From Escherichia coli (GTDB taxonomy: Bacteria > Pseudomonadota > Gammaproteobacteria > Enterobacterales > Enterobacteriaceae), in assembly GCF_048403405.1 (NCBI RefSeq), contig NZ_CP183129.1: 64,000 bases of DNA; one strand, written 5' to 3'. Shown here in pieces: positions 1 through 10,174 of the stretch. The translations under genes and the position numbers were made by a program. The first letter of the stretch is position 1, and each line of letters opens with the position of its first letter. The notes below the pieces were generated by a model. It searched no databases. It saw only the letters and a program-made list of their open reading frames with translations, and was not told where the DNA came from.

Positions 1-920
1 TGTACGCATCTTTGATCCTCGCTGAGAATGTTTCACGCCGGGAATAGGCTCTCGCTCAGGCGGGATGGTCCACATCGACGTGTCGAAATCTATCTCCGAC
101 CAGCGAGCAAAACGCAGCTCACTGGATCGAATAAAGATAAGCAGAGTAAGTTCAGTTGCCCAGCGGGTTAGTGGCCTGCCGGTGTATTCATCGATTTTCT
201 GGAGTAATTCCGGGATACGCTTTAACTCCAGCGCCGGACGATGCTGTCGATTACTGGAAGCAACCGCCCCCGCCATCTCTTGCGCCGGATTGTAATCAAT
301 TAACCCGCTTTGCACTGCATAACGCATGATGGCCGTAGTGCGCTGTTGAAGGCGGGAAGCCACTTCAAGACGTCCGGACTTCTCCACGGCTTTAATAGGA
401 ATTAACAGATCGCGGGTGCCTAGTTCAGCAATGTTGCGAGTACCAATTGCCGGGAAGATATTCTCCTCCAAGCTCTTTTTAGACGATTAGCATGATATTC
501 CGACCATTTTTGGTTGGTCACGAGCCACTATTTGGCAACCTTCTCGAAAGTAATAATCTCTTTCGCCTGCTCTTCTTTCACAGCACGTTTATGCTCACGA
601 GGATCGATACCAGCAGCTACCAGCTTTCTGGCCTCTTCCCTTTTCTTCCGCGCATCCGCCAGCGAAACATCCGGGTAAACGCCGAACGCCATCAAATGTT
701 GTTTACCACCAGAACGGAAACGAAATCACCAATACTTTGAACCGCCAGGTTTTACAAGTAAAGACATGCCGTCGCCGTCAACAAGTGAATACTCTTTCTC
801 CTCTGACTTCACAGAACGAACTTTAGTATCCGTTAGGGCAATAATGGTCTTCCTTCCATTGGTATCTCGTGAGTATACAAGCAATATCGAATCGGCAAAT
901 ATGCTTATTAGTATACTCAC
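1..920 (-). pseudogene. intB: Degraded P4-type (tyrosine) integrase adjacent to leuX; runs off the left window edge
   Basis: Minus-strand translation gives ALTDTKVRSVKSEEKEYSLVDGDGMSLLVKPGGSKYW, then in-frame TGA (726-728), FRFRSGGKQHLMAFGVYPDVSLADARKKREEARKL..FEKVAK, in-frame TAG (528-530), then a frame change in a T-run near 474-481, after which NIFPAIGTRNIAELGTRDLLIPIKAVEKSGRLEV continues in another frame to position 1. Integrase-like throughout but not one intact ORF. Confidence 0.75.
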
Positions 921-1042
921 AAGCCTGTTGATGTGGGTTGAGTCAGGTTGACTTCAGTTGAGGAGAAAAGCTGGAAAAGCCTTGCGTGGTGCGGATTTCA
1001 GGCATAAAAAAAGACCTCAGTTGAGGTCTATTTACATACTTT

Positions 1043-1127
1043 TGGTGCCGAAGGCCGGACTCGAACCGGCACGTATTTCTACGGTTGATTTTGAATCAAC
1101 TGCGTCTACCGATTTCGCCACTTCGGC
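1043..1127 (-). tRNA. leuX: tRNA-Leu (anticodon CAA)
   Basis: Reverse complement reads GCCGAAGTGGCGAAATCGGTAGACGCAGTTGATTCAAAATCAACCGTAGAAATACGTGCCGGTTCGAGTCCGGCCTTCGGCACCA: long variable arm, CAA anticodon loop, T-loop GGTTCGAGTCC, encoded CCA end. Confidence 0.95.
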
Positions 1128-1322
1128 ACTGAAGAGGTATGCGGAAAACGTTGTGGATTATACCTGTCGCACGCCACCATGCAAGCGCCAGCTTGCTCGC
1201 ACCTCGCTAAGTGCTGAAATTTTCAGCATTGCATACAGCGATGTGTAACCTTTGTCACACTCCAGGCACCCCGCCCTGCCATGCTCTACACTTCCCAGAC
1301 AACACCAGAGAAGGACCAAAAA

Positions 1323-2342
1323 ATGTCGATGATAAAAAGCTACGCCGCAAAAGAGGCTGGCGGCGAACTGGAACTTTATGAGTACGATCCCGGTGAACTG
1401 AAGCCACAAGATGTTGAAGTGCAGGTGGATTACTGCGGGATCTGCCATTCCGATCTGTCGATGATCGACAACGAATGGGGATTTTCACAGTATCCGCTGG
1501 TTGCCGGGCATGAGGTGATTGGGCGCGTGGTGGCACTCGGGAGCGCCGCGCAGGATAAAGGTTTGCAGGTCGGTCAGCGTGTCGGGATTGGCTGGACGGC
1601 GCGTAGCTGTGGTCACTGCGATGCCTGTATTAGCGGTAATCAGATCAACTGCGAGCAAGGCGCGGTGCCAACAATTATGAATCGCGGCGGCTTTGCCAAG
1701 AAGTTGCGTGCGGACTGGCAATGGGTGATCCCACTGCCAGAAAATATTGATATCGAGTCCGCCGGGCCGCTGTTGTGCGGCGGTATCACGGTCTTTAAAC
1801 CACTGTTGATGCACCATATCACTGCTACCAGCCGCGTTGGGGTAATTGGTATTGGCGGGCTGGGGCATATCGCTATAAAACTTCTGCACGCAATGGGATG
1901 CGAGGTGACAGCCTTTAGTTCAAATCCGGCGAAAGAGCAGGAAGTACTGGCGATGGGTGCCGATAAAGTGGTGAATAGCCGCGATCCACAGGCACTGAAA
2001 ACTCTGGCGGGGCAGTTTGATCTCATTATCAATACTGTGAACGTCAGCCTCGACTGGCAGCCTTATTTTGAGGCGCTGACGTATGGCGGTAATTTCCACA
2101 CCGTCGGTGCGGTTCTCACGCCGTTGCCGGTTCCGGCCTTTACGCTGATTGCGGGCGATCGCAGTGTCTCTGGCTCTGCTACCGGTACACCTTATGAGTT
2201 GCGTAAGCTGATGCGCTTTGCCGCCCGCAGCAAGGTTGCGCCGACTACCGAACTGTTCCCGATGTCGAAAATTAACGACGCCATCCAGCATGTGCGCGAC
2301 GGTAAGGCGCGTTACCGCGTGGTGTTGAAAGCCGATTTTTGA
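1323..2342 (+). CDS. ahr: NADPH-dependent aldehyde reductase, Zn-dependent alcohol dehydrogenase family
   Basis: ORF 1281-2342; start set at [11 protein letters not shown] (339 aa). Zn-ADH motifs GHEVIGRVV and CGHCDAC, and GIGGLGH dinucleotide fold. Confidence 0.9.
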
Positions 2343-2345
2343 AAA

Positions 2346-2909
2346 TCATTCGCAGCGCTGATCTGAGGCGCTGCCCTCTTTCGCACATATTCTGTTTTGT
2401 CGTATCGCCAGCACAGCCTGCCGACATTGTTCGGTGACATTGGCAATATCATGGTTGATATCAATGCGCACAATATCCTGCTCATCTTCTTGTGGACGCT
2501 CCAGTGCCTCAAACTGACTTTTTAGTAACGCTACCGGCATAAAATGCCCAGCCCGACGCTGCATTCGCGCGAGAATAGTTTCATAGTCGCCATCTAACCA
2601 GAGGAAATGAACATGGGGGCTACCCTTGCGTAAAATATCACGATACTGTTTTTTTAATGATGAACAGACAATAAATCCTGTTTCATTCTTTTTATAAAGA
2701 CTGTATGAAGCATCATTTAAGCGTTCCAGCCAGGGAAGTCGATCTTCATCAGATAATGGAATACCCTGCGACATTTTATCTATATTTTTGGCTGGATGAA
2801 GATCGTCACCATCAATAAATTTAGCAGATAATAACGCGGCAACCTTGCTACCAATTAATGTTTTACCACTCCCTGAAACGCCCATCAAAATAAAGCTTTC
2901 ACCCGCCAT
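2346..2909 (-). CDS. idnK: Gluconate kinase (thermosensitive, GntII system)
   Basis: 187-aa ORF with P-loop GVSGSGKT near the N-terminus; divergent from idnD. Confidence 0.9.
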   Translation of the reverse strand: MAGESFILMGVSGSGKTLIGSKVAALLSAKFIDGDDLHPAKNIDKMSQGIPLSDEDRLPWLERLNDASYSLYKKNETGFIVCSSLKKQYRDILRKGSPHVHFLWLDGDYETILARMQRRAGHFMPVALLKSQFEALERPQEDEQDIVRIDINHDIANVTEQCRQAVLAIRQNRICAKEGSASDQRCE

Positions 2910-3010
2910 TTAAAATCTCCTGAATCATCTTACCTGCTGTGATACTACGCCTGGTGGCATAATAATTTCACGTTTTTTTATTTCTGCTGATAAGAATTAC
3001 AAGGCACATC

Positions 3011-3026
3011 ACGTTATGCGTAACAT
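3011..3026. promoter_or_regulatory. Candidate GntR/IdnR operator in the idnK-idnD divergent promoter region
   Basis: ACGTTATGCGTAACAT is a near-perfect 16-bp palindrome resembling the ATGTTAC-N2-GTAACAT operator class of GntR/IdnR (LacI family). Confidence 0.4.
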
Positions 3027-3125
3027 AGTAATGTAACAATTTTCTAACGTGATCTTCATCACAAATAATGACAATTAAAACCGCTTAAATGCTTCCGAGG
3101 TGTCTACCTGACCAGTGAGAAATTT

Positions 3126-4157
3126 ATGCAAGTGAAAACACAGTCCTGCGTTGTTGCAGGCAAGAAAACTGTTGCCGTTACCGAGCAGACGATAGATTGG
3201 AATAATAATGGAACATTAGTACAAATAACCCGAGGTGGAATTTGCGGTTCCGATTTACATTATTATCAGGAAGGAAAAGTAGGTAATTTCATGATAAAGG
3301 CACCGATGGTGTTAGGTCATGAAGTTATCGGTAAAGTTATTCATAGCGACTCATCAGAATTACATGAAGGGCAAACGGTAGCCATTAATCCGTCTAAACC
3401 GTGCGGTCACTGCAAATACTGCATTGAACATAACGAGAATCAGTGTACAGATATGCGTTTTTTTGGCAGTGCCATGTATTTCCCTCATGTTGATGGTGGT
3501 TTTACCCGTTATAAAATGGTCGAAACGTCGCAATGTGTCCCTTATCCGGCCAAAGCTGACGAAAAGGTTATGGCTTTTGCCGAACCTTTAGCCGTCGCGA
3601 TTCATGCCGCACATCAGGCCGGCGAGTTACAGGGCAAGCGAGTATTTATTTCTGGTGTTGGGCCCATTGGCTGCCTGATTGTCAGTGCTGTGAAAACACT
3701 GGGGGCCGCGGAAATTGTCTGTGCCGATGTGAGTCCCCGTTCCCTTTCGCTGGGCAAAGAGATGGGGGCGGAGGTGCTCGTAAACCCACAAAACGACGAC
3801 ATGGATCACTGGAAAGCGGAAAAAGGCTATTTCGATGTCAGCTTTGAAGTGTCCGGTCATCCTTCATCAGTGAATACCTGTCTGGAGGTCACTCGTGCAC
3901 GCGGCGTAATGGTGCAGGTAGGTATGGGAGGCGCGATGGCAGAATTCCCAATGATGACATTGATTGGTAAGGAGATTTCACTCAAAGGCTCTTTCCGTTT
4001 TACCAGCGAATTTAATACCGCAGTGTCATGGCTGGCGAATGGCGTTATCAATCCACTGCCTTTACTGAGTGCTGAATATCCCTTCACTGACCTGGAAGAG
4101 GCGCTACGTTTCGCCGGTGATAAAACCCAGGCAGCAAAAGTCCAGCTTGTTTTCTAA
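3126..4157 (+). CDS. idnD: L-idonate 5-dehydrogenase (Zn-dependent dehydrogenase)
   Basis: 343-aa ORF; GICGSDLHYY and GHEVIGKV Zn-ADH motifs; first gene of idnDOTR. Confidence 0.9.
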   Translation: MQVKTQSCVVAGKKTVAVTEQTIDWNNNGTLVQITRGGICGSDLHYYQEGKVGNFMIKAPMVLGHEVIGKVIHSDSSELHEGQTVAINPSKPCGHCKYCIEHNENQCTDMRFFGSAMYFPHVDGGFTRYKMVETSQCVPYPAKADEKVMAFAEPLAVAIHAAHQAGELQGKRVFISGVGPIGCLIVSAVKTLGAAEIVCADVSPRSLSLGKEMGAEVLVNPQNDDMDHWKAEKGYFDVSFEVSGHPSSVNTCLEVTRARGVMVQVGMGGAMAEFPMMTLIGKEISLKGSFRFTSEFNTAVSWLANGVINPLPLLSAEYPFTDLEEALRFAGDKTQAAKVQLVF

Positions 4158-4180
4158 GAGATAAATAAAGGAATAATACA

Positions 4181-4945
4181 ATGAACGATCTATTTTCACT
4201 GGCAGGAAAAAATATCTTGATTACCGGTTCAGCACAGGGCATTGGCTTTTTACTGGCAACCGGCCTGGGTAAATATGGCGCACAAATAATTATTAATGAT
4301 ATTACTGCCGAACGCGCAGAACTTGCTGTAGAAAAACTCCACCAGGAGGGTATTCAGGCCGTTGCCGCACCTTTTAATGTTACTCATAAACATGAAATTG
4401 ATGCCGCCGTTGAACATATCGAAAAGAACATCGGCCCCATTGATGTGCTGGTGAATAACGCCGGTATCCAGCGCCGTCATCCTTTTACTGAGTTCCCTGA
4501 ACAAGAGTGGAATGATGTGATCGCAGTAAACCAGACCGCCGTGTTCCTGGTATCGCAAGCGGTAACTCGTCACATGGTTGAACGCAAGGCAGGTAAAGTT
4601 ATTAATATTTGCTCGATGCAAAGCGAACTGGGACGTGACACCATCACCCCTTATGCCGCATCGAAAGGGGCGGTAAAAATGCTCACCCGCGGCATGTGCG
4701 TCGAGCTGGCGCGCCACAATATTCAGGTCAACGGTATTGCGCCGGGCTATTTCAAAACAGAAATGACTAAAGCACTGGTTGAGGACGAAGCCTTCACCGC
4801 CTGGTTGTGCAAACGGACCCCCGCCGCACGCTGGGGAGATCCGCAGGAACTGATTGGTGCTGCGGTGTTCCTTTCTTCAAAAGCCTCTGATTTCGTAAAC
4901 GGCCACCTGTTGTTTGTTGATGGCGGCATGTTAGTGGCTGTTTAA
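4181..4945 (+). CDS. idnO: 5-keto-D-gluconate 5-reductase (short-chain dehydrogenase/reductase)
   Basis: 254-aa ORF; TGSAQGIG Rossmann motif and YAASKGAV (YxxxK) catalytic motif. Confidence 0.9.
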   Translation: MNDLFSLAGKNILITGSAQGIGFLLATGLGKYGAQIIINDITAERAELAVEKLHQEGIQAVAAPFNVTHKHEIDAAVEHIEKNIGPIDVLVNNAGIQRRHPFTEFPEQEWNDVIAVNQTAVFLVSQAVTRHMVERKAGKVINICSMQSELGRDTITPYAASKGAVKMLTRGMCVELARHNIQVNGIAPGYFKTEMTKALVEDEAFTAWLCKRTPAARWGDPQELIGAAVFLSSKASDFVNGHLLFVDGGMLVAV

Positions 4946-5009
4946 CAGCCACCACCCTACGTGCAGCGCGAAAGCGCTGCTTTTCTGGCACTAATAAGAG
5001 ATAAAGACT

Positions 5010-6329
5010 ATGCCATTAATCATTATTGCGGCAGGCGTCGCGCTGCTTCTTATCCTGATGATCGGCTTTAAAGTTAACGGCTTTATTGCCCTCGTTCTGG
5101 TAGCTGCCGTCGTCGGATTTGCCGAAGGGATGGATGCACAGGCCGTCCTGCACTCTATACAAAATGGTATCGGCAGCACGCTCGGCGGGCTGGCAATGAT
5201 CCTCGGTTTCGGGGCCATGTTAGGCAAGCTGATTTCTGATACGGGCGCGGCACAACGTATCGCCACTACGCTGATTGCTACTTTTGGTAAAAAACGCGTG
5301 CAATGGGCGCTAGTGATCACCGGTCTGGTTGTGGGCCTCGCCATGTTTTTTGAAGTGGGTTTTGTCCTGCTGTTGCCGTTGGTATTTACCATCGTGGCAT
5401 CATCTGGATTACCCCTGTTGTATGTTGGCGTACCGATGGTAGCAGCGCTCTCTGTAACCCACTGTTTTCTGCCGCCACATCCAGGGCCTACTGCCATCGC
5501 GACTATCTTTGAGGCTAATCTCGGAACGACTTTACTGTATGGATTTATCATTACCATTCCGACAGTTATTGTCGCAGGACCGCTGTTTTCTAAACTGCTA
5601 ACTCGCTTTGAGAAAGCACCACCGGAAGGCTTATTTAATCCTCATCTGTTTAGCGAAGAGGAGATGCCCTCCTTCTGGAACAGTATTTTCGCTGCCGTGA
5701 TCCCGGTCATCCTGATGGCTATCGCCGCCGTTTGTGAAATTACGTTACCGAAAACTAACGCCGTGCGCCTCTTCTTTGAATTTGTCGGTAACCCTGCCGT
5801 TGCGCTGTTTATTGCCATTGTTATTGCGATTTTCACACTGGGCCGACGTAATGGACGCACCATCGAGCAAATCATGGATATCATTGGGGATTCTATAGGC
5901 GCTATCGCGATGATTGTGTTTATTATCGCTGGCGGCGGCGCGTTTAAGCAGGTATTAGTAGATAGCGGTGTCGGGCAGTATATTTCACACTTAATGACCG
6001 GAACTACACTTTCGCCGTTATTGATGTGCTGGACTGTTGCGGCGCTGTTGCGTATCGCTCTGGGCTCTGCCACCGTCGCGGCCATTACCACCGCGGGTGT
6101 GGTGTTGCCGATTATCAACGTTACCCATACCGATCCCGCTTTAATGGTACTGGCAACCGGTGCGGGCAGCGTGATCGCATCACACGTAAACGACCCTGGC
6201 TTCTGGCTATTTAAAGGGTATTTTAATCTGACGGTTGGTGAAACGTTGCGTACCTGGACGGTGATGGAAACCCTTATTTCTATTATGGGTTTGCTGGGCG
6301 TGTTAGCCATTAACGCCGTATTGCACTGA
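5010..6329 (+). CDS. idnT: L-idonate/5-ketogluconate/gluconate transporter (GntP family permease)
   Basis: 439-aa highly hydrophobic ORF; position in the idn operon. Confidence 0.9.
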   Translation: MPLIIIAAGVALLLILMIGFKVNGFIALVLVAAVVGFAEGMDAQAVLHSIQNGIGSTLGGLAMILGFGAMLGKLISDTGAAQRIATTLIATFGKKRVQWALVITGLVVGLAMFFEVGFVLLLPLVFTIVASSGLPLLYVGVPMVAALSVTHCFLPPHPGPTAIATIFEANLGTTLLYGFIITIPTVIVAGPLFSKLLTRFEKAPPEGLFNPHLFSEEEMPSFWNSIFAAVIPVILMAIAAVCEITLPKTNAVRLFFEFVGNPAVALFIAIVIAIFTLGRRNGRTIEQIMDIIGDSIGAIAMIVFIIAGGGAFKQVLVDSGVGQYISHLMTGTTLSPLLMCWTVAALLRIALGSATVAAITTAGVVLPIINVTHTDPALMVLATGAGSVIASHVNDPGFWLFKGYFNLTVGETLRTWTVMETLISIMGLLGVLAINAVLH

Positions 6330-6394
6330 AAGAATAAAATATTGTGATGTAGTTTCGGGGGAAGATTGAAGATTCCCCGACGTTGGGAGAAGTT

Positions 6395-7393
6395 ATGCGC
6401 AATCACAGAATTTCTTTACAGGATATCGCTACGCTGGCTGGCGTAACAAAAATGACCGTGAGTCGTTATATCCGCTCGCCGAAAAAGGTGGCAAAGGAAA
6501 CAGGCGAGCGCATCGCCAAAATTATGGAAGAGATCAATTATATCCCTAATCGCGCTCCCGGCATGTTGTTGAATGCACAAAGTTATACCCTCGGTATCTT
6601 GATTCCGTCATTTCAAAATCAACTCTTCGCTGACATTCTCGCGGGAATAGAATCCGTCACCTCTGAGCATAATTATCAGACCCTTATTGCTAATTACAAT
6701 TACGATCGCGATTCCGAAGAAGAGTCGGTGATTAACCTGCTCTCTTATAACATTGACGGGATTATACTTTCGGAAAAATATCACACCATCAGGACGGTGA
6801 AATTTCTGCGTTCAGCCACCATTCCGGTCGTGGAATTGATGGATGTACAGGGAGAACGGCTGGATATGGAGGTCGGTTTTGATAATCGGCAGGCCGCTTT
6901 TGACATGGTGTGTACCATGCTGGAGAAGCGAGTCAGGCACAAAATTCTGTATCTCGGTTCCAAAGATGACACCCGCGATGAACAGCGTTATCAGGGGTAT
7001 TGCGATGCGATGATGCTGCATAATCTTTCCCCATTACGCATGAATCCACGCGCCATCTCATCCATTCATTTAGGAATGCAGTTAATGCGTGATGCCCTTA
7101 GCGCAAACCCGGATTTAGACGGTGTATTTTGCACCAATGACGATATTGCGATGGGTGCGCTTCTGCTGTGCCGCGAGCGAAACCTCGCCGTGCCAGAACA
7201 AATTTCCATTGCGGGTTTTCATGGGCTGGAGATTGGCAGGCAAATGATCCCAAGCCTCGCCAGCGTAATTACTCCCCGTTTTGATATTGGTCGGATGGCC
7301 GCCCAAATGTTGCTGAGCAAAATTAAGAATAACGATCACAACCACAACACTGTTGACCTCGGGTATCAGATTTATCACGGTAACACGCTTTAG
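6395..7393 (+). CDS. idnR: LacI-family transcriptional regulator of the idn operon
   Basis: ORF 6383-7393; start chosen at MRNHR (332 aa). N-terminal [24 protein letters not shown]. Confidence 0.85.
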
Positions 7394-7470
7394 GTTATTT
7401 TCTCTGCATTACACATATTCTCTTTGCCGGACGTTGCCTATACTCCAGGCAGGAAACTGGAGGAAATCTC

Positions 7471-8973
7471 ATGAGCGAACCCCTGTTAATTGCCCGCACG
7501 TCGGATACAGAACTGTTTTTATTGCCGAGAATGGCGAATCGTCACGGGCTGATTACTGGCGCAACGGGGACGGGTAAAACCGTTACGCTGCAAAAACTGG
7601 CAGAGTCATTGTCGGAAATCGGTGTTCCGGTGTTTATGGCCGATGTGAAAGGCGATCTGACCGGCATCGCGCAGGCAGGAACGGCGTCGGAAAAACTGCT
7701 CGCAAGGCTTAAAAATATCGGCGTAAATGACTGGCAACCTCATGTTAATCCGGTGGTGGTGTGGGATATCTTTGGCGAGAAAGGCCACCCGGTGCGGGCG
7801 ACGGTTTCGGATCTGGGGCCGCTGTTGCTGGCACGACTGTTGAATCTCAACGATGTGCAATCTGGCGTGCTGAATATCATCTTCCGCATTGCTGATGATC
7901 AGGGGCTGTTACTGCTCGACTTTAAAGATTTGCGGGCGATTACCCAGTACATCGGCGATAACGCCAAATCCTTCCAGAATCAGTATGGTAATATCAGTAG
8001 CGCATCGGTTGGTGCCATCCAGCGCGGGCTGTTATCGCTGGAACAGCAAGGCGCGGCGCACTTTTTTGGTGAGCCGATGCTGGATATCAAAGACTGGATG
8101 CGTACCGATGCCAACGGTAAAGGCGTTATCAATATCCTCAGCGCCGAGAAGCTTTATCAGATGCCGAAACTGTACGCCGCCAGCCTGCTGTGGATGCTTT
8201 CAGAATTGTATGAACAATTGCCTGAAGCGGGCGATCTGGAGAAACCAAAACTGGTGTTTTTCTTCGACGAAGCACATCTGCTGTTTAACGATGCACCGCA
8301 GGTACTGCTGGATAAGATTGAGCAGGTGATAAGGCTTATCCGCTCGAAAGGCGTGGGCGTCTGGTTCGTTTCGCAAAACCCGTCAGATATTCCGGATAAC
8401 GTGCTCGGGCAGCTCGGTAATCGCGTTCAACACGCTTTGCGTGCTTTTACGCCTAAAGATCAGAAAGCAGTGAAGGCAGCGGCGCAAACCATGCGCCCCA
8501 ACCCTGCATTTGATACGGAAAAGGCGATTCAGGAACTGGGCACCGGCGAGGCGTTGATCTCTTTTCTGGATGCGAAAGGAAGCCCTTCTGTGGTGGAACA
8601 GGCGATGGTGATTGCGCCTTGTTCGCGGATGGGACCGGTGACGGAAGATGAGCGTAATGGCTTGATTAATCACTCTCCGGTGTATGGCAAGTACGAGGAT
8701 GACGTGGACCGGGAATCCGCCTATGAGATGTTGCAAAAAGGCTTTCAGGCCAGTACCGAGCAGCAAAATAATCCTCCCGCGAAAGGGAAAGAGGTGGCGG
8801 TGGATGACGGTATTCTCGGTGGATTGAAGGATATTTTGTTTGGCACTACCGGACCACGCGGCGGGAAGAAAGATGGTGTGGTGCAAACAATGGCGAAAAG
8901 CGCCGCCCGCCAGGTGACGAATCAGATTGTGCGTGGTGTGCTGGGGAGTTTGCTGGGGGGGAGAAAAAGATAA
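7471..8973 (+). CDS. yjgR: Uncharacterised P-loop NTPase (DUF853-type)
   Basis: 500-aa ORF; Walker A GATGTGKT near residue 30 and Walker-B-like [12 protein letters not shown]. Confidence 0.85.
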
Positions 8974-8990
8974 GTCAGACGTGATCTGTG

Positions 8991-9032
8991 CCCCTCACCC
9001 TAACCCTCTCCCCAAAGGGGCGAGGGGACCGT
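8991..9032. repeat. GC-rich palindromic intergenic repeat, copy 1 of 3
   Basis: CCCTCACCCTAACCCTCTCCCC-AAA-GGGGCGAGGGGACC; shares the 20-nt core CCTCACCCTAACCCTCTCCC with the copies at 13064 and 36705. Confidence 0.8.
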
Positions 9033-9091
9033 TCGAACTCGTATTTGACTTTGTCAACAATAATAAAGGGAGCTTTCGCTCCCTTGTTAGA

Positions 9092-10174
9092 TTACGATTT
9101 TCTCATTAACAGCCACAGGCTGATTAAGAAGAAGCTGGCGCTTGGCAACAGTGCGCCGATAATCGGCGGGATGCCGTAAACCAACGTCAGCGGGCCGAAG
9201 ATCTGGTCCAGTACGTAGAAGACAAAACCGAAGCTGATACCGGTGACCACACGCACGCCCATCGGTACGCTACGCAGTGGGCCAAAGATAAACGACAGCG
9301 CCATCAGCATCATCACCGCCACGGATAGCGGCTGGAAGATTTTGCTCCACATGTTGAGCTGATAACGTCCAGCGTCCTGACCACTCGACTTCAGATACTT
9401 CACATAGTTGTGCAAACCACTGATGGAGAGTGCATCCGGGTCCAGCGCCACCACGCCCAGTTTGTCTGGCGTGAGGTTGGTTTTCCAGGTGCCGCTCACC
9501 GTCTGCGAACCGGTAATCTGTTTCGGATTGGTCAAATCAGATTCATCAACCTGCGACAGACGCCAGACTTTATGTTCAGGGTCAAACTTCGCGGTAGCGG
9601 CATAGCGTACGGATTGCAGACGACGATTCTCGTTAAAGGCATAAATACTGATGCCACCTAACTCTTCGTCACCTTTAACCCGCTCAATGTAGACGAAGTT
9701 GTTGCCATCTTTCGCCCATAAACCTTGCTGGGTAGAGAGCAACGAGCCGCCGTACATCGCCTGCGCACGGTAGTTACGCGCCATCTGCTCGCCCTGCGGC
9801 GCGACCCATTCACCAATCGCCATCGTCAGCAAGACCAGCGGAATGGCGGTTTTCATCACCGACAGCGCCACCTGCATACGGGTAAAACCAGAAGCCTGCA
9901 TGACTACCAGTTCGCTGCGCTGCGCCAGCATCCCAAGACCAAGCAACGCCCCAAGCAGAGCCGCCATCGGGAAGAAGATTTGCACATCTTTCGGCACGCT
10001 CAGCAAGGTATACATTCCTGCGCCTAACGCGTCGTAACTCCCCTGCCCGGCTTTTTTCAGCTGATCGACAAACTTGATAATGCCCGACAGCGACACCAGC
10101 ATGAACAGCGTCATCATGATGGTGGTGAAAATAGTTTTACCGATATAGCGGTCAAGTACGCCAAAAGGTTGCAT
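9092..10174 (-). CDS. lptG: Lipopolysaccharide export ABC permease
   Basis: ORF 9092-10177; start at the second Met gives 360 aa; multi-pass membrane protein; start overlaps the lptF stop. Confidence 0.85.
   Translation of the reverse strand: MQPFGVLDRYIGKTIFTTIMMTLFMLVSLSGIIKFVDQLKKAGQGSYDALGAGMYTLLSVPKDVQIFFPMAALLGALLGLGMLAQRSELVVMQASGFTRMQVALSVMKTAIPLVLLTMAIGEWVAPQGEQMARNYRAQAMYGGSLLSTQQGLWAKDGNNFVYIERVKGDEELGGISIYAFNENRRLQSVRYAATAKFDPEHKVWRLSQVDESDLTNPKQITGSQTVSGTWKTNLTPDKLGVVALDPDALSISGLHNYVKYLKSSGQDAGRYQLNMWSKIFQPLSVAVMMLMALSFIFGPLRSVPMGVRVVTGISFGFVFYVLDQIFGPLTLVYGIPPIIGALLPSASFFLISLWLLMRKS

Follow-up and report, generated by a model that had tools for sequence, protein, structure and literature searches.

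The idnK and idnDOTR genes of this Escherichia coli strain lie next to leuX, an integration hotspot, and the initial annotation took their apparent AT-richness to indicate an older horizontally acquired island rather than ancestral core. This raises the question of whether the cluster owes its presence to the neighbouring tRNA gene, to foreign import of another kind, or to a different history. The whole stretch of DNA that was analyzed, 64,000 nucleotides in length, is referred to below as the window.

Gene content of the cluster

Gene names and coordinates in the window were obtained from an ORF map and from the RefSeq annotation of strain MS 69-1, to which the window is essentially identical, and they agree with those first assigned to idnK/idnDOTR (GntII). 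Segment 2346-7393 is the GntII/L-idonate cluster. All five proteins of this system are present, the five idn ORFs are all intact, and idnK is divergent from an idnD-idnO-idnT-idnR operon with ahr (yjgB) to the left and yjgR to the right, a layout identical to that of K-12 MG1655. The features of the locus are as follows:

1043..1127, minus strand: leuX, tRNA-Leu(CAA) (ARAGORN and RefSeq annotation of MS 69-1)
1323..2342, plus strand: ahr (yjgB), NADPH-dependent aldehyde reductase (NCBIfam NF047908, 553.6 vs cut-off 470)
2346..2909, minus strand: idnK (gntV), gluconokinase (NF007336, 394.8 vs cut-off 304)
2910..3125, no strand: divergent idnK/idnDOTR regulatory region, 216 bp, 35% GC (from composition)
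3126..4157, plus strand: idnD, L-idonate 5-dehydrogenase (NF007375, 683.8 vs cut-off 469)
4181..4945, plus strand: idnO, gluconate 5-dehydrogenase (5-keto-D-gluconate 5-reductase) (NF005983, 537.7 vs cut-off 408)
5010..6329, plus strand: idnT, GntP-type transporter (TIGR00791, 660 vs cut-off 293; RefSeq name)
6395..7393, plus strand: idnR, LacI-family regulator (NF047913, 596.4 vs cut-off 500)
7394..7432, no strand: 39-nt spacer found only in the occupied allele, its place being taken by an unrelated ~90-nt spacer in the empty allele (homologous 39-nt spacer in Citrobacter; junction comparison)
7433..7470, plus strand: sequence common to both alleles 5' of yjgR (GTTGCCTATACTCC...GGAGGAAATCTC), the right-hand presence/absence breakpoint
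7471..8973, plus strand: yjgR, HerA-like ATPase, core right flank (annotation)

IdnK, IdnD, IdnO and IdnR passed the cut-offs of equivalog NCBIfam models, whereas IdnT passed the gntP subfamily model TIGR00791 but did not reach the cut-off of NF011560, an equivalog model described as 'gluconate transporter' (645 vs 744). The predicted role of the cluster is growth on L-idonate and 5-ketogluconate with IdnR-mediated induction.

The GntII (subsidiary gluconate) or L-idonate system of E. coli K-12 was reportedly described by Bausch et al. in J Bacteriol in 1998. The segment matches the K-12 cluster in all five genes and their order, in the divergent layout and in the position between ahr and yjgR, with 99.4% nucleotide identity over 5 kb, and nothing of substance differs. 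A one-base difference from the nearest genomes was observed in a C-run between idnT and idnR. The biology of the idn cluster is already well established, and the chromosomal 'idnK idnDOTR' pathway is cited in PMC3251573.

Base composition of the cluster

The segment has a GC content of 47.3%, compared with 50.7% for the window and 55.1% for both ahr and valS. Length-weighted GC3 is 0.49 for the idn genes, whereas the 48 remaining genes in the window have a value of 0.58 (ahr 0.61). Relative to 139 genes of the same genome (mean 0.556, sd 0.070), the individual genes gave the following values:

idnK: GC3 0.367, z -2.7, 1st percentile
idnD: GC3 0.448, z -1.55, 8th percentile
idnO: GC3 0.490, z -0.94, 14th percentile
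idnT: GC3 0.545, z -0.15, 35th percentile
idnR: GC3 0.532, z -0.35, 29th percentile

Only idnK lies more than 2 sd from the mean, and no other gene in the cluster is as rich in AT (GC 43.4%). The AT shift noticed at first sight is thus present, but it is modest, and it is idnK that is extreme, not idnD, which had been singled out and is only mildly low. Windowed GC gave a similarly divided answer: while idnK is outside the genomic norm and idnO, idnT and idnR are normal in GC3, the GC content of the 5,048-bp idn block ranks no lower than the 13th percentile when compared with stretches of the same size across 164 kb of the genome (18th percentile within the 64-kb window alone). Far stronger AT outliers are found elsewhere in the window, at 16.5-21.8 kb (minimum 40.3% GC). 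Codon usage was mid-range for idnD, idnO, idnT and idnR (ranks 24-43 of 53) and ranked 11 for idnK, and the dinucleotide signature (delta*) of the segment was at the 90th percentile. The total GC content of idnR, 47%, is low through codon positions 1 and 2. An AT-rich core of 38-40% GC was located at approximately 2500-3500, comprising the 5' part of idnK, the 216-bp intergenic region and the 5' third of idnD; GC3 is 0.36 in this third and ~0.49 in the remainder of idnD.

The cassette in other genera

The gene order in Salmonella is leuX-ahr-idnK-idnDOTR-lptG, and three Citrobacter species have the order ahr-idnK-idnDOTR-yjgR (sp. FP75, one C. werkmanii strain, and the contig that encodes an IdnD sequence labelled C. 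amalonaticus by NCBI). Between E. coli and Salmonella/Citrobacter, dN is 0.02-0.11 for idn and 0.01-0.05 for the flanks; dS between the genera is above 1, i.e., saturated, so that the case for co-divergence draws chiefly on dN and nucleotide identity. The relative distances of idnD, idnR and ahr are as expected with E. coli as the outgroup to Salmonella and Citrobacter, and between the Citrobacter species divergence is 6.4-15.3% for idnDOTR, 6.5-11.8% for ahr and 8.9-15.3% for yjgR. Salmonella and the three Citrobacter species accordingly show what is expected of a vertically inherited locus, namely a shared site and a divergence that tracks ahr, yjgR and lptG. According to the initial annotation, two observations together would speak against acquisition: the distribution across genera does fit descent with the backbone, but the composition is not wholly within the norm, as idnK GC3 is still atypical.

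In Kluyvera/Phytobacter the cassette occupies a different chromosomal site, in Erwinia, Serratia and Pasteurellaceae it occurs with differing gene sets or neighbours, and one conjugative Klebsiella IncF plasmid carries it between IS1 and IS110. These varied contexts and the plasmid copy demonstrate that the module does move horizontally. IdnD identity to the E. coli protein is 71-85% within Enterobacteriaceae (mostly 78-85%), 61-69% in Erwiniaceae and Pectobacteriaceae, 64-65% in Serratia, 62% in Yersinia and 60-64% in Pasteurellaceae.

In all four genera compared (Escherichia, Salmonella, Citrobacter and Kluyvera), idnK has the lowest and idnD the second lowest GC3; the values for idnO, idnT and idnR are higher, and all idn genes are at or below their flanks, except idnR of FP75. 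In every genus compared, GC3 is 0.31-0.44 in the 5' third of idnK and in that of idnD, and in Citrobacter the remainder of the two genes reaches 0.6-0.73 in spite of these low 5' thirds. As the low-GC3 pattern is common to four genera, it is an inherited property of the cassette and does not signal that E. coli imported it. The E. coli cassette lies approximately 0.1 GC3 further below its own flanks than the Citrobacter cassette, and this additional deficit, together with the outlying idnK, makes some extra AT drift or foreign history possible. The AT shift is intrinsic to the cassette, and its centre is the divergent promoter together with the adjoining 5' portions of idnK and idnD. As its most likely cause, we infer AT-biased drift under weak selection on codon usage in an optional operon that would seldom be expressed, with a possible contribution from selection that keeps the regulatory region AT-rich.

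The same data bear on an ancient acquisition, in which the ancestor of Escherichia, Salmonella and Citrobacter obtained the cluster from a donor of lower GC content and the GC3 of idnK and idnD was never ameliorated. Such an event would fit the z scores of these two genes (-2.7 and -1.55), and their low GC3 in all four genera is as expected for an inherited donor signature. It would also fit the patchy distribution, the occurrence of the module in unrelated contexts (Kluyvera, Erwinia, Serratia, Pasteurellaceae and one plasmid) and the conservation of the divergent idnK/idnD core out to Pasteurellaceae, whose GC content is ~40%. However, IdnD identity drops with taxonomic distance, there is no close foreign relative, with a gap between 85% and the E. 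coli cluster of sequences, and four of the genes (idnD, idnO, idnT and idnR) use codons in a manner typical of E. coli. The idnO, idnT and idnR genes of Citrobacter are at the GC3 level of the flanks (0.68-0.72) while the 5' thirds of idnK and idnD are at 0.33-0.44, a contrast that looks locally maintained, unlike a donor composition that is the same throughout. In the flanking core genes, moreover, local GC3 profiles are similarly conserved (r = 0.4-0.6). An acquisition of this kind is in our view unlikely.

Occupied and empty alleles

The cluster was present in 2054 of 5426 complete E. coli genomes (38%) and was never found on an E. coli plasmid among them. With ahr in 5423 and yjgR in 5425 of these genomes (>99.9%), the view that idn is not universal core is borne out. 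In the six empty E. coli loci examined, ahr and yjgR are separated by 129 bp with a clean junction, and this interval differs on average at ~1.4% of positions. Approximately 90 nt of the empty-allele spacer have no homologue in occupied loci and are conserved in C. werkmanii and in E. albertii, the only other Escherichia species among the matches listed, so that few outgroups are represented. On the occupied side, the 39-nt right spacer is likewise conserved between E. coli and the three Citrobacter species. C. werkmanii itself is polymorphic: the cassette is absent from the type strain and present in a second strain, and the flanks of the two are 1.8-4.1% apart.

If idn had been fixed in ancestral E. 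coli, each empty site would be an independent recent deletion. The cassette is indeed dispensable, an IS4-family insertion in KO11FL and an IS1 insertion in 2015C-3121 lie within it, and idnR is frameshifted in an O166:H15 strain. Nevertheless, all six empty E. coli loci have one common 129-bp interval, and the ~90 nt that lack a counterpart in occupied loci are homologous to the empty sites of E. albertii and C. werkmanii, and a stretch homologous across species cannot be created by deletion. Independent losses are thus very improbable.

Recombination around the locus

Nucleotide diversity (pi) across nine idn-positive genomes was 4.0% for ahr, 0.82% for idn, 4.6% for yjgR and 2.2% for lptGF, and both ahr and yjgR are hyper-diverse within E. 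coli. The diversity of idn, ~0.38 times that of the neighbouring core, is what a carrier frequency of 38% in the population would be expected to give. Flank alleles were not sorted by idn state. K-12 and AUSMDU00002545 have near-identical backbones (0.5% apart in lptGF) and opposite idn states, and two ST131-labelled genomes with flanks ~4% apart also differ in idn state. Within ST131, idnK is present in H41 and absent in H30 and H22 (PMC5369007). A hotspot of phylogenetic incongruence of ~200 kb has been described around leuX (Touchon et al. 2009, PMC2617782).

Relation to the leuX hotspot

As leuX is on the minus strand, its 3' end (position 1043) faces left, away from idn. The 3' end of a tRNA gene is the usual attachment side of islands, and an integrase pseudogene and variable cargo are found on this side, to the left of leuX. 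The idn cluster is on the 5' side and is separated from leuX by the near-universal core gene ahr. No att-type repeats or mobility genes bound the cluster; the sole bracketing repeat is 14 nt long with a 13/14 match, unrelated to leuX, and we estimate from sequence length that ~5 such pairs are expected by chance. The proposed link to the hotspot is therefore not sustained, and leuX site-specific integration has no part in idn history. A recent island insertion, with idn within or alongside a tRNA-integrated island, would explain the distance of <1.3 kb from leuX, the occurrence in just 38% of genomes and the low diversity within E. coli (pi 0.8%), but it is effectively refuted by the position of idn 5' of leuX behind ahr with integrases and variable cargo all on the 3' side, by the lack of an integrase and tRNA-derived repeats, and by the Salmonella and Citrobacter cassettes at the same site with ~20% nucleotide divergence, while a carrier frequency of 38% would itself yield low diversity.

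The leuX islands (KpLE2 in K-12, leuX pathogenicity islands and the BREX-carrying island of this genome) have proximity to leuX, variable presence among strains (2054/5426 genomes for idn) and some AT shift in common with idn. Unlike them, idn is not inserted at the tRNA 3' end but lies on the wrong side with a core gene between, carries no integrase, tRNA-derived direct repeats (att) or mobility genes, and is conserved at one site across three genera. Accessory operons swapped via conserved flanks (Touchon et al. 2009, PMC2617782) share with idn the two alternative alleles, the shuffling of flank alleles relative to the cargo and the hyper-diverse flanking core. In contrast to such operons, both ahr/yjgR alleles have junctions common to several genera, indicating a polymorphism far older than most strain-specific segments.

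Proposed history of the cluster

From the composition, presence/absence frequencies, junction sequences, synteny and divergence, which were all observed directly, we infer an ancestral polymorphism: idn is probably an old optional cassette, whose presence and absence are reshuffled by homologous recombination in the leuX-fim hot region. The cassette would have resided between ahr and yjgR/lptG since before the Escherichia-Salmonella-Citrobacter split and co-diverged with the backbone. It would be dispensable, and the empty allele (ahr, 129-bp spacer, yjgR) would be old as well, both alleles now segregating in E. coli (38% occupied) and in C. werkmanii. The idn state would switch through homologous recombination that replaces the entire ahr-yjgR stretch, and such replacement would be frequent because the locus is within the leuX-fim recombination hot region. 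A polymorphism of this kind that outlives genus splits is, however, unusual, and later exchange between genera is an alternative. The initial reading as an older horizontally acquired island thus survives in part: the cluster is accessory, mildly AT-shifted and old, but the shared site and co-divergence do not agree with import through leuX.

More tentatively, the ahr/yjgR junction might be a trans-species polymorphism, in which both alleles are older than the separation of Escherichia and Citrobacter and persist because balancing selection favours or disfavours idonate/5-ketogluconate use according to the niche. Selection, e.g., for binding of nucleoid-associated proteins, would then also maintain the AT-rich idnK/idnD promoter valley, which would not be a foreign relic. 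We regard this extension as possible, albeit on the improbable side.

Implications

A gene cluster that is mildly AT-rich and close to a tRNA hotspot is easily mistaken for a tRNA-borne island, but the two properties together do not establish that it is one. For idn, the direction in which leuX points, the core gene in between and the gene order shared across genera speak instead for an old, optional metabolic cassette that homologous recombination reshuffles. The idn genes have been reported to vary between ST131 subclones and to be enriched in pks+ lineages and HUS-associated STEC. In practice, whether a strain has them can serve as a marker, albeit one prone to recombination, and should not be taken to show that foreign genes were recently imported.

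Organization of the idn segment

Window positions 1-9000 are approximately 100% identical to the chromosome of E. coli strain MS 69-1, and the RefSeq annotation of this strain was transferable. It placed the idnK-idnDOTR (idn) cluster at exactly the coordinates proposed in the initial annotation (2346-7393). All five Idn proteins passed curated NCBIfam cut-offs (for IdnT, that of a gntP subfamily model), and the cluster is 99.4% identical to its K-12 counterpart. The segment is the classical GntII, or L-idonate, cluster. The features of the locus, from the MS 69-1 annotation except for leuX (ARAGORN), are:

1043-1127, minus strand: leuX, tRNA-Leu(CAA)
1323-2342, plus strand: ahr
2346-2909, minus strand: idnK
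3126-4157, plus strand: idnD
4181-4945, plus strand: idnO
5010-6329, plus strand: idnT
6395-7393, plus strand: idnR
7471-8973, plus strand: yjgR

Several small differences between genomes were observed. IdnK has 187 aa in E. coli (stop end at window 2346-2390) and 173-176 aa in Salmonella, Citrobacter and Kluyvera, the extra length being 11-14 C-terminal residues. The E. coli idnK stop codon is 3 nt from that of ahr, where the other genera have a 27-34 nt spacer, which folds as a hairpin in the Citrobacter sequences. One C is missing from the C-run at 6375-6379 relative to MS 69-1 and apparently also to the rest of the nearest genomes, where the matched stretch exceeds the window query by one base; this run is the 3' arm of an idnT/idnR intergenic hairpin, GGGGGAAGATTGAAGATTCCCC(C). 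The yjgR-lptG spacer (8842-9182) measures 118 bp in the window and 160 bp in K-12, an indel of ~42 bp between strains.

Relation to the leuX hotspot

P4-type integrases insert islands at the 3' end of tRNA genes. As leuX lies on the minus strand, its 3' end, and hence the side of island insertion, faces left. On this side a frameshifted P4-type integrase was found (window 1-842), with a BREX type 1 system (pglX, brxC and others) farther left, outside the window (1-9000 of comparison locus L001). The other E. coli loci compared carried differing cargo left of leuX, nearly always beside an integrase gene or remnant; this cargo includes a MobH relaxase element, a Kiwa-like gene and phosphoethanolamine transferase remnants. 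To the right of leuX, ahr came first in every E. coli locus compared, and it was present in 5423 of 5426 complete E. coli genomes. No integrase, transposase or tRNA-derived repeat bounding idn was found. Given the orientation of leuX, the intervening ahr and these missing boundaries, the adjacency to the hotspot is not mechanistic in the way first proposed: idn lies on the other side and is not a leuX-borne island.

A 14-nt direct repeat, CACATATTCT(G/C)TTT, brackets the cassette at 2384-2397 (within the idnK 3' end) and 7412-7425, with a spacing of 5028 bp. It was rejected as a deletion or insertion scar, since it is missing from loci without idn and, by our own estimate, chance alone would produce ~5 pairs of this kind in 8.3 kb.

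Nucleotide composition

The initial annotation had described the cluster as AT-shifted, especially in idnD. The shift is real, and the GC/GC3, codon-usage and dinucleotide results show that it is modest. GC content is 47.3% in the segment and 50.7% in the window, with 55.1% in both ahr and valS, and as a 5-kb block the cluster falls at the 13th percentile of GC. Codon usage is ordinary in four of the five genes, and the dinucleotide signature ranks at the 90th percentile. Relative to 139 genes of the same genome (48 in the window and 91 in two distant 50-kb regions; mean GC3 0.556, sd 0.070), the extreme gene is idnK (GC3 0.367, z -2.7) rather than idnD (0.448, z -1.55), followed by idnO (0.490, z -0.94), idnR (0.532, z -0.35) and idnT (0.545, z -0.15). 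An AT-rich core at ~2500-3500 (38-40% GC) comprises the idnK 5' part, the divergent intergenic region (35% GC) and the idnD 5' third. The mild AT shift thus stems from idnK together with the promoter region.

The argF-tabA interval (16540-21785) deviates towards AT far more strongly than idn does; it holds yjgN (GC 37.6%, GC3 0.37) and a hypothetical 555-aa ORF (20118-21785, minus strand; GC 32%, GC3 0.29); the lowest 5-kb GC of the window, 40.3%, starts at 16801. An isolated AT-rich gene is ytfI (58567-59478; GC 36%, GC3 0.35).

GC3 of idn genes in four genera, and of flanking genes in three of them
E. coli: idnK.37, idnD.45, idnO.49, idnT.55, idnR.53; flanks.60-.68
Salmonella: idnK.46, idnD.51, idnO.58, idnT.58, idnR.58; flanks.63-.72
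Citrobacter sp. FP75: idnK.53, idnD.63, idnO.69, idnT.68, idnR.72; flanks.69-.73
Kluyvera: idnK.46, idnD.50, idnO.58, idnT.67, idnR.59

Each of the four genera has its GC3 minimum in idnK and its second-lowest value in idnD, with idnO, idnT and idnR above both; in the three genera with flank values, the idn genes do not exceed their own flanks except for FP75 idnR. Within the 5' thirds of idnK and idnD, GC3 is 0.31-0.44 in each genus, even where the rest of the gene reaches 0.6-0.73. As this pattern is common to all four genera, the AT bias is long-standing and belongs to the cassette itself, with its centre at the idnK/idnD divergent promoter. Conservation of the local GC3 profile between genera (idn, r = 0.58-0.67) was rejected as a sign of special constraint on idn, because the flanks are also correlated (r = 0.40-0.61) and the idn correlation alone is not specific.

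Presence and absence in E. coli

The idn cluster was found in 2054 of 5426 complete E. coli genomes, always on the chromosome; it is accessory, in partial support of the initial annotation. The cluster and its accessory status were already known: carriage of idn genes is 83% among pks+ genomes and 31% among pks- genomes (PMC8545132), idnK is present in ST131 H41 and absent in H30 and H22 (PMC5369007), and HUS-associated STEC show an enrichment of L-idonate GO terms (PMC4216125). No E. coli plasmid with the cluster was found. Two PLSDB "plasmids" carrying it, of 4.9 Mb, look by their size like mislabelled chromosomes, and "idnD" matches on E. coli plasmids belong to another pathway (46% identical; PMC3251573).

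In six idn-less loci, ahr is followed by a 129-bp spacer and then yjgR. Occupied loci contain nothing that corresponds to about 90 nt of this empty spacer, a stretch that includes a hairpin immediately downstream of the ahr stop; they have their own 39-nt spacer ahead of the yjgR upstream sequence common to both alleles. Because of this unmatched spacer, the two states are related by replacement rather than by simple insertion or deletion.

Distribution and divergence beyond E. coli

Outgroups came from a genome scan with YjgR as query (at least seven enterobacterial loci among 80 listed) and from an IdnD protein search with the contigs encoding its matches. Salmonella enterica has the order leuX-ahr-idnK-idnDOTR-lptG, without yjgR; in one locus (L087 8341-10627) idnR is followed by a 205-bp spacer, with putative REP-type palindromic repeats by appearance, and then lptG. 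The order ahr-idnK-idnDOTR-yjgR-lptG was found in three Citrobacter genomes: sp. FP75, one C. werkmanii strain and the contig of an IdnD labelled C. amalonaticus by NCBI. The empty allele occurs in E. albertii and the C. werkmanii type strain, with a spacer homologous to that of E. coli. Within C. werkmanii this same site is thus polymorphic, between two strains whose flanks are only 1.8-4.1% apart. In Enterobacter cloacae and Enterobacter sp. Ag1 the junction holds an ATP-dependent glycerone (dihydroxyacetone) kinase gene (L008 8217-9863; L010 8224-9930), so that the cargo between ahr and yjgR varies between genera.

Sequence divergence was compared between idn and its surroundings. When E. 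coli is compared with Salmonella or Citrobacter, the idn genes show a dN of 0.02-0.11, and ahr, yjgR, lptG, lptF and pepA one of 0.01-0.05. Relative distances of idnD, idnR and ahr all fit E. coli as outgroup to Salmonella and Citrobacter, with synonymous sites saturated. Among the three Citrobacter species, idnDOTR divergence (6.4-15.3%) tracks that of ahr (6.5-11.8%), yjgR (8.9-15.3%) and lptG (9.9-12.1%). IdnD identity declines with taxonomic distance, from 71-85% (mostly 78-85%) in Enterobacteriaceae to 61-69% in Erwiniaceae and Pectobacteriaceae, 62-65% in Yersiniaceae and 60-64% in Pasteurellaceae. In the protein search, no protein fills the gap from 85% identity up to the E. coli cluster; two candidates for a donor lineage were rejected, P0002 (92%) as a truncated gene on a short metagenome contig and P0019 (88%) as a truncated ORF from an assembly in which pepA and integrase genes are split as well. 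At genus and family level, these comparisons point to descent with the backbone, not recent import. Of the older horizontal island initially suggested, the accessory nature and the age hold, while the leuX-borne origin does not and the genus-level distribution in Salmonella and Citrobacter is congruent with the backbone.

Diversity and recombination within E. coli

Nine idn+ genomes, selected to cover the identity range, gave a nucleotide diversity (pi) of 4.0% in ahr, 0.82% in idn, 4.6% in yjgR and 2.2% in lptGF, and the switch from high to low diversity lies within 200 bp of the cassette edges. Across the population, an identity of at least 99% to the window is reached by 1979 of 2054 idn copies, and by only 11 genomes for a pepA-valS control segment. 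Low idn diversity was considered as a sign of a recent sweep or introduction and was not decisive: carriage of 38% predicts proportionally lower diversity, and the leuX hot region makes the flanks abnormally diverse. The value is about what is expected for a segment present in 38% of the population and is not taken as a recent sweep. The flanks are just as diverse in six idn- genomes, and their hyper-diversity fits the published leuX-fim hotspot of phylogenetic incongruence (PMC2617782). Both ahr (1323-2342) and yjgR (7471-8973) are unusually polymorphic relative to neighbouring lptGF (pi ~2%), with dS up to 0.24.

The idn state does not partition flank alleles. It can differ between backbones only 0.5-0.9% apart in lptGF, and two ST131-labelled genomes have opposite states with flanks ~4% apart. 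These pairs indicate that the idn state changes by homologous replacement of the whole stretch.

Origin of the two alleles

The idn module may have a still older horizontal origin, with some support from its presence in other genomic contexts. Kluyvera/Phytobacter carry the whole cassette at a different chromosomal site, idnR, idnK and idnDOT occur on a Pasteurellaceae contig that keeps the divergent idnK/idnD core, Erwinia has idnDOTR without idnK, and Serratia has idnO-idnD only. The Klebsiella pneumoniae conjugative IncFIB/FII plasmid pRHB39-C10_3, the sole such plasmid among 72,556 PLSDB records, carries a complete Citrobacter-type idnK-idnDOTR (L108 6237-11257) flanked by IS1 and IS110 transposase genes. 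For the ahr-yjgR site itself, the best-supported reading is that idn would be an ancient optional catabolic cassette with an equally old empty allele, both of which segregate in at least two species and would be reshuffled by homologous recombination in a known hot region.
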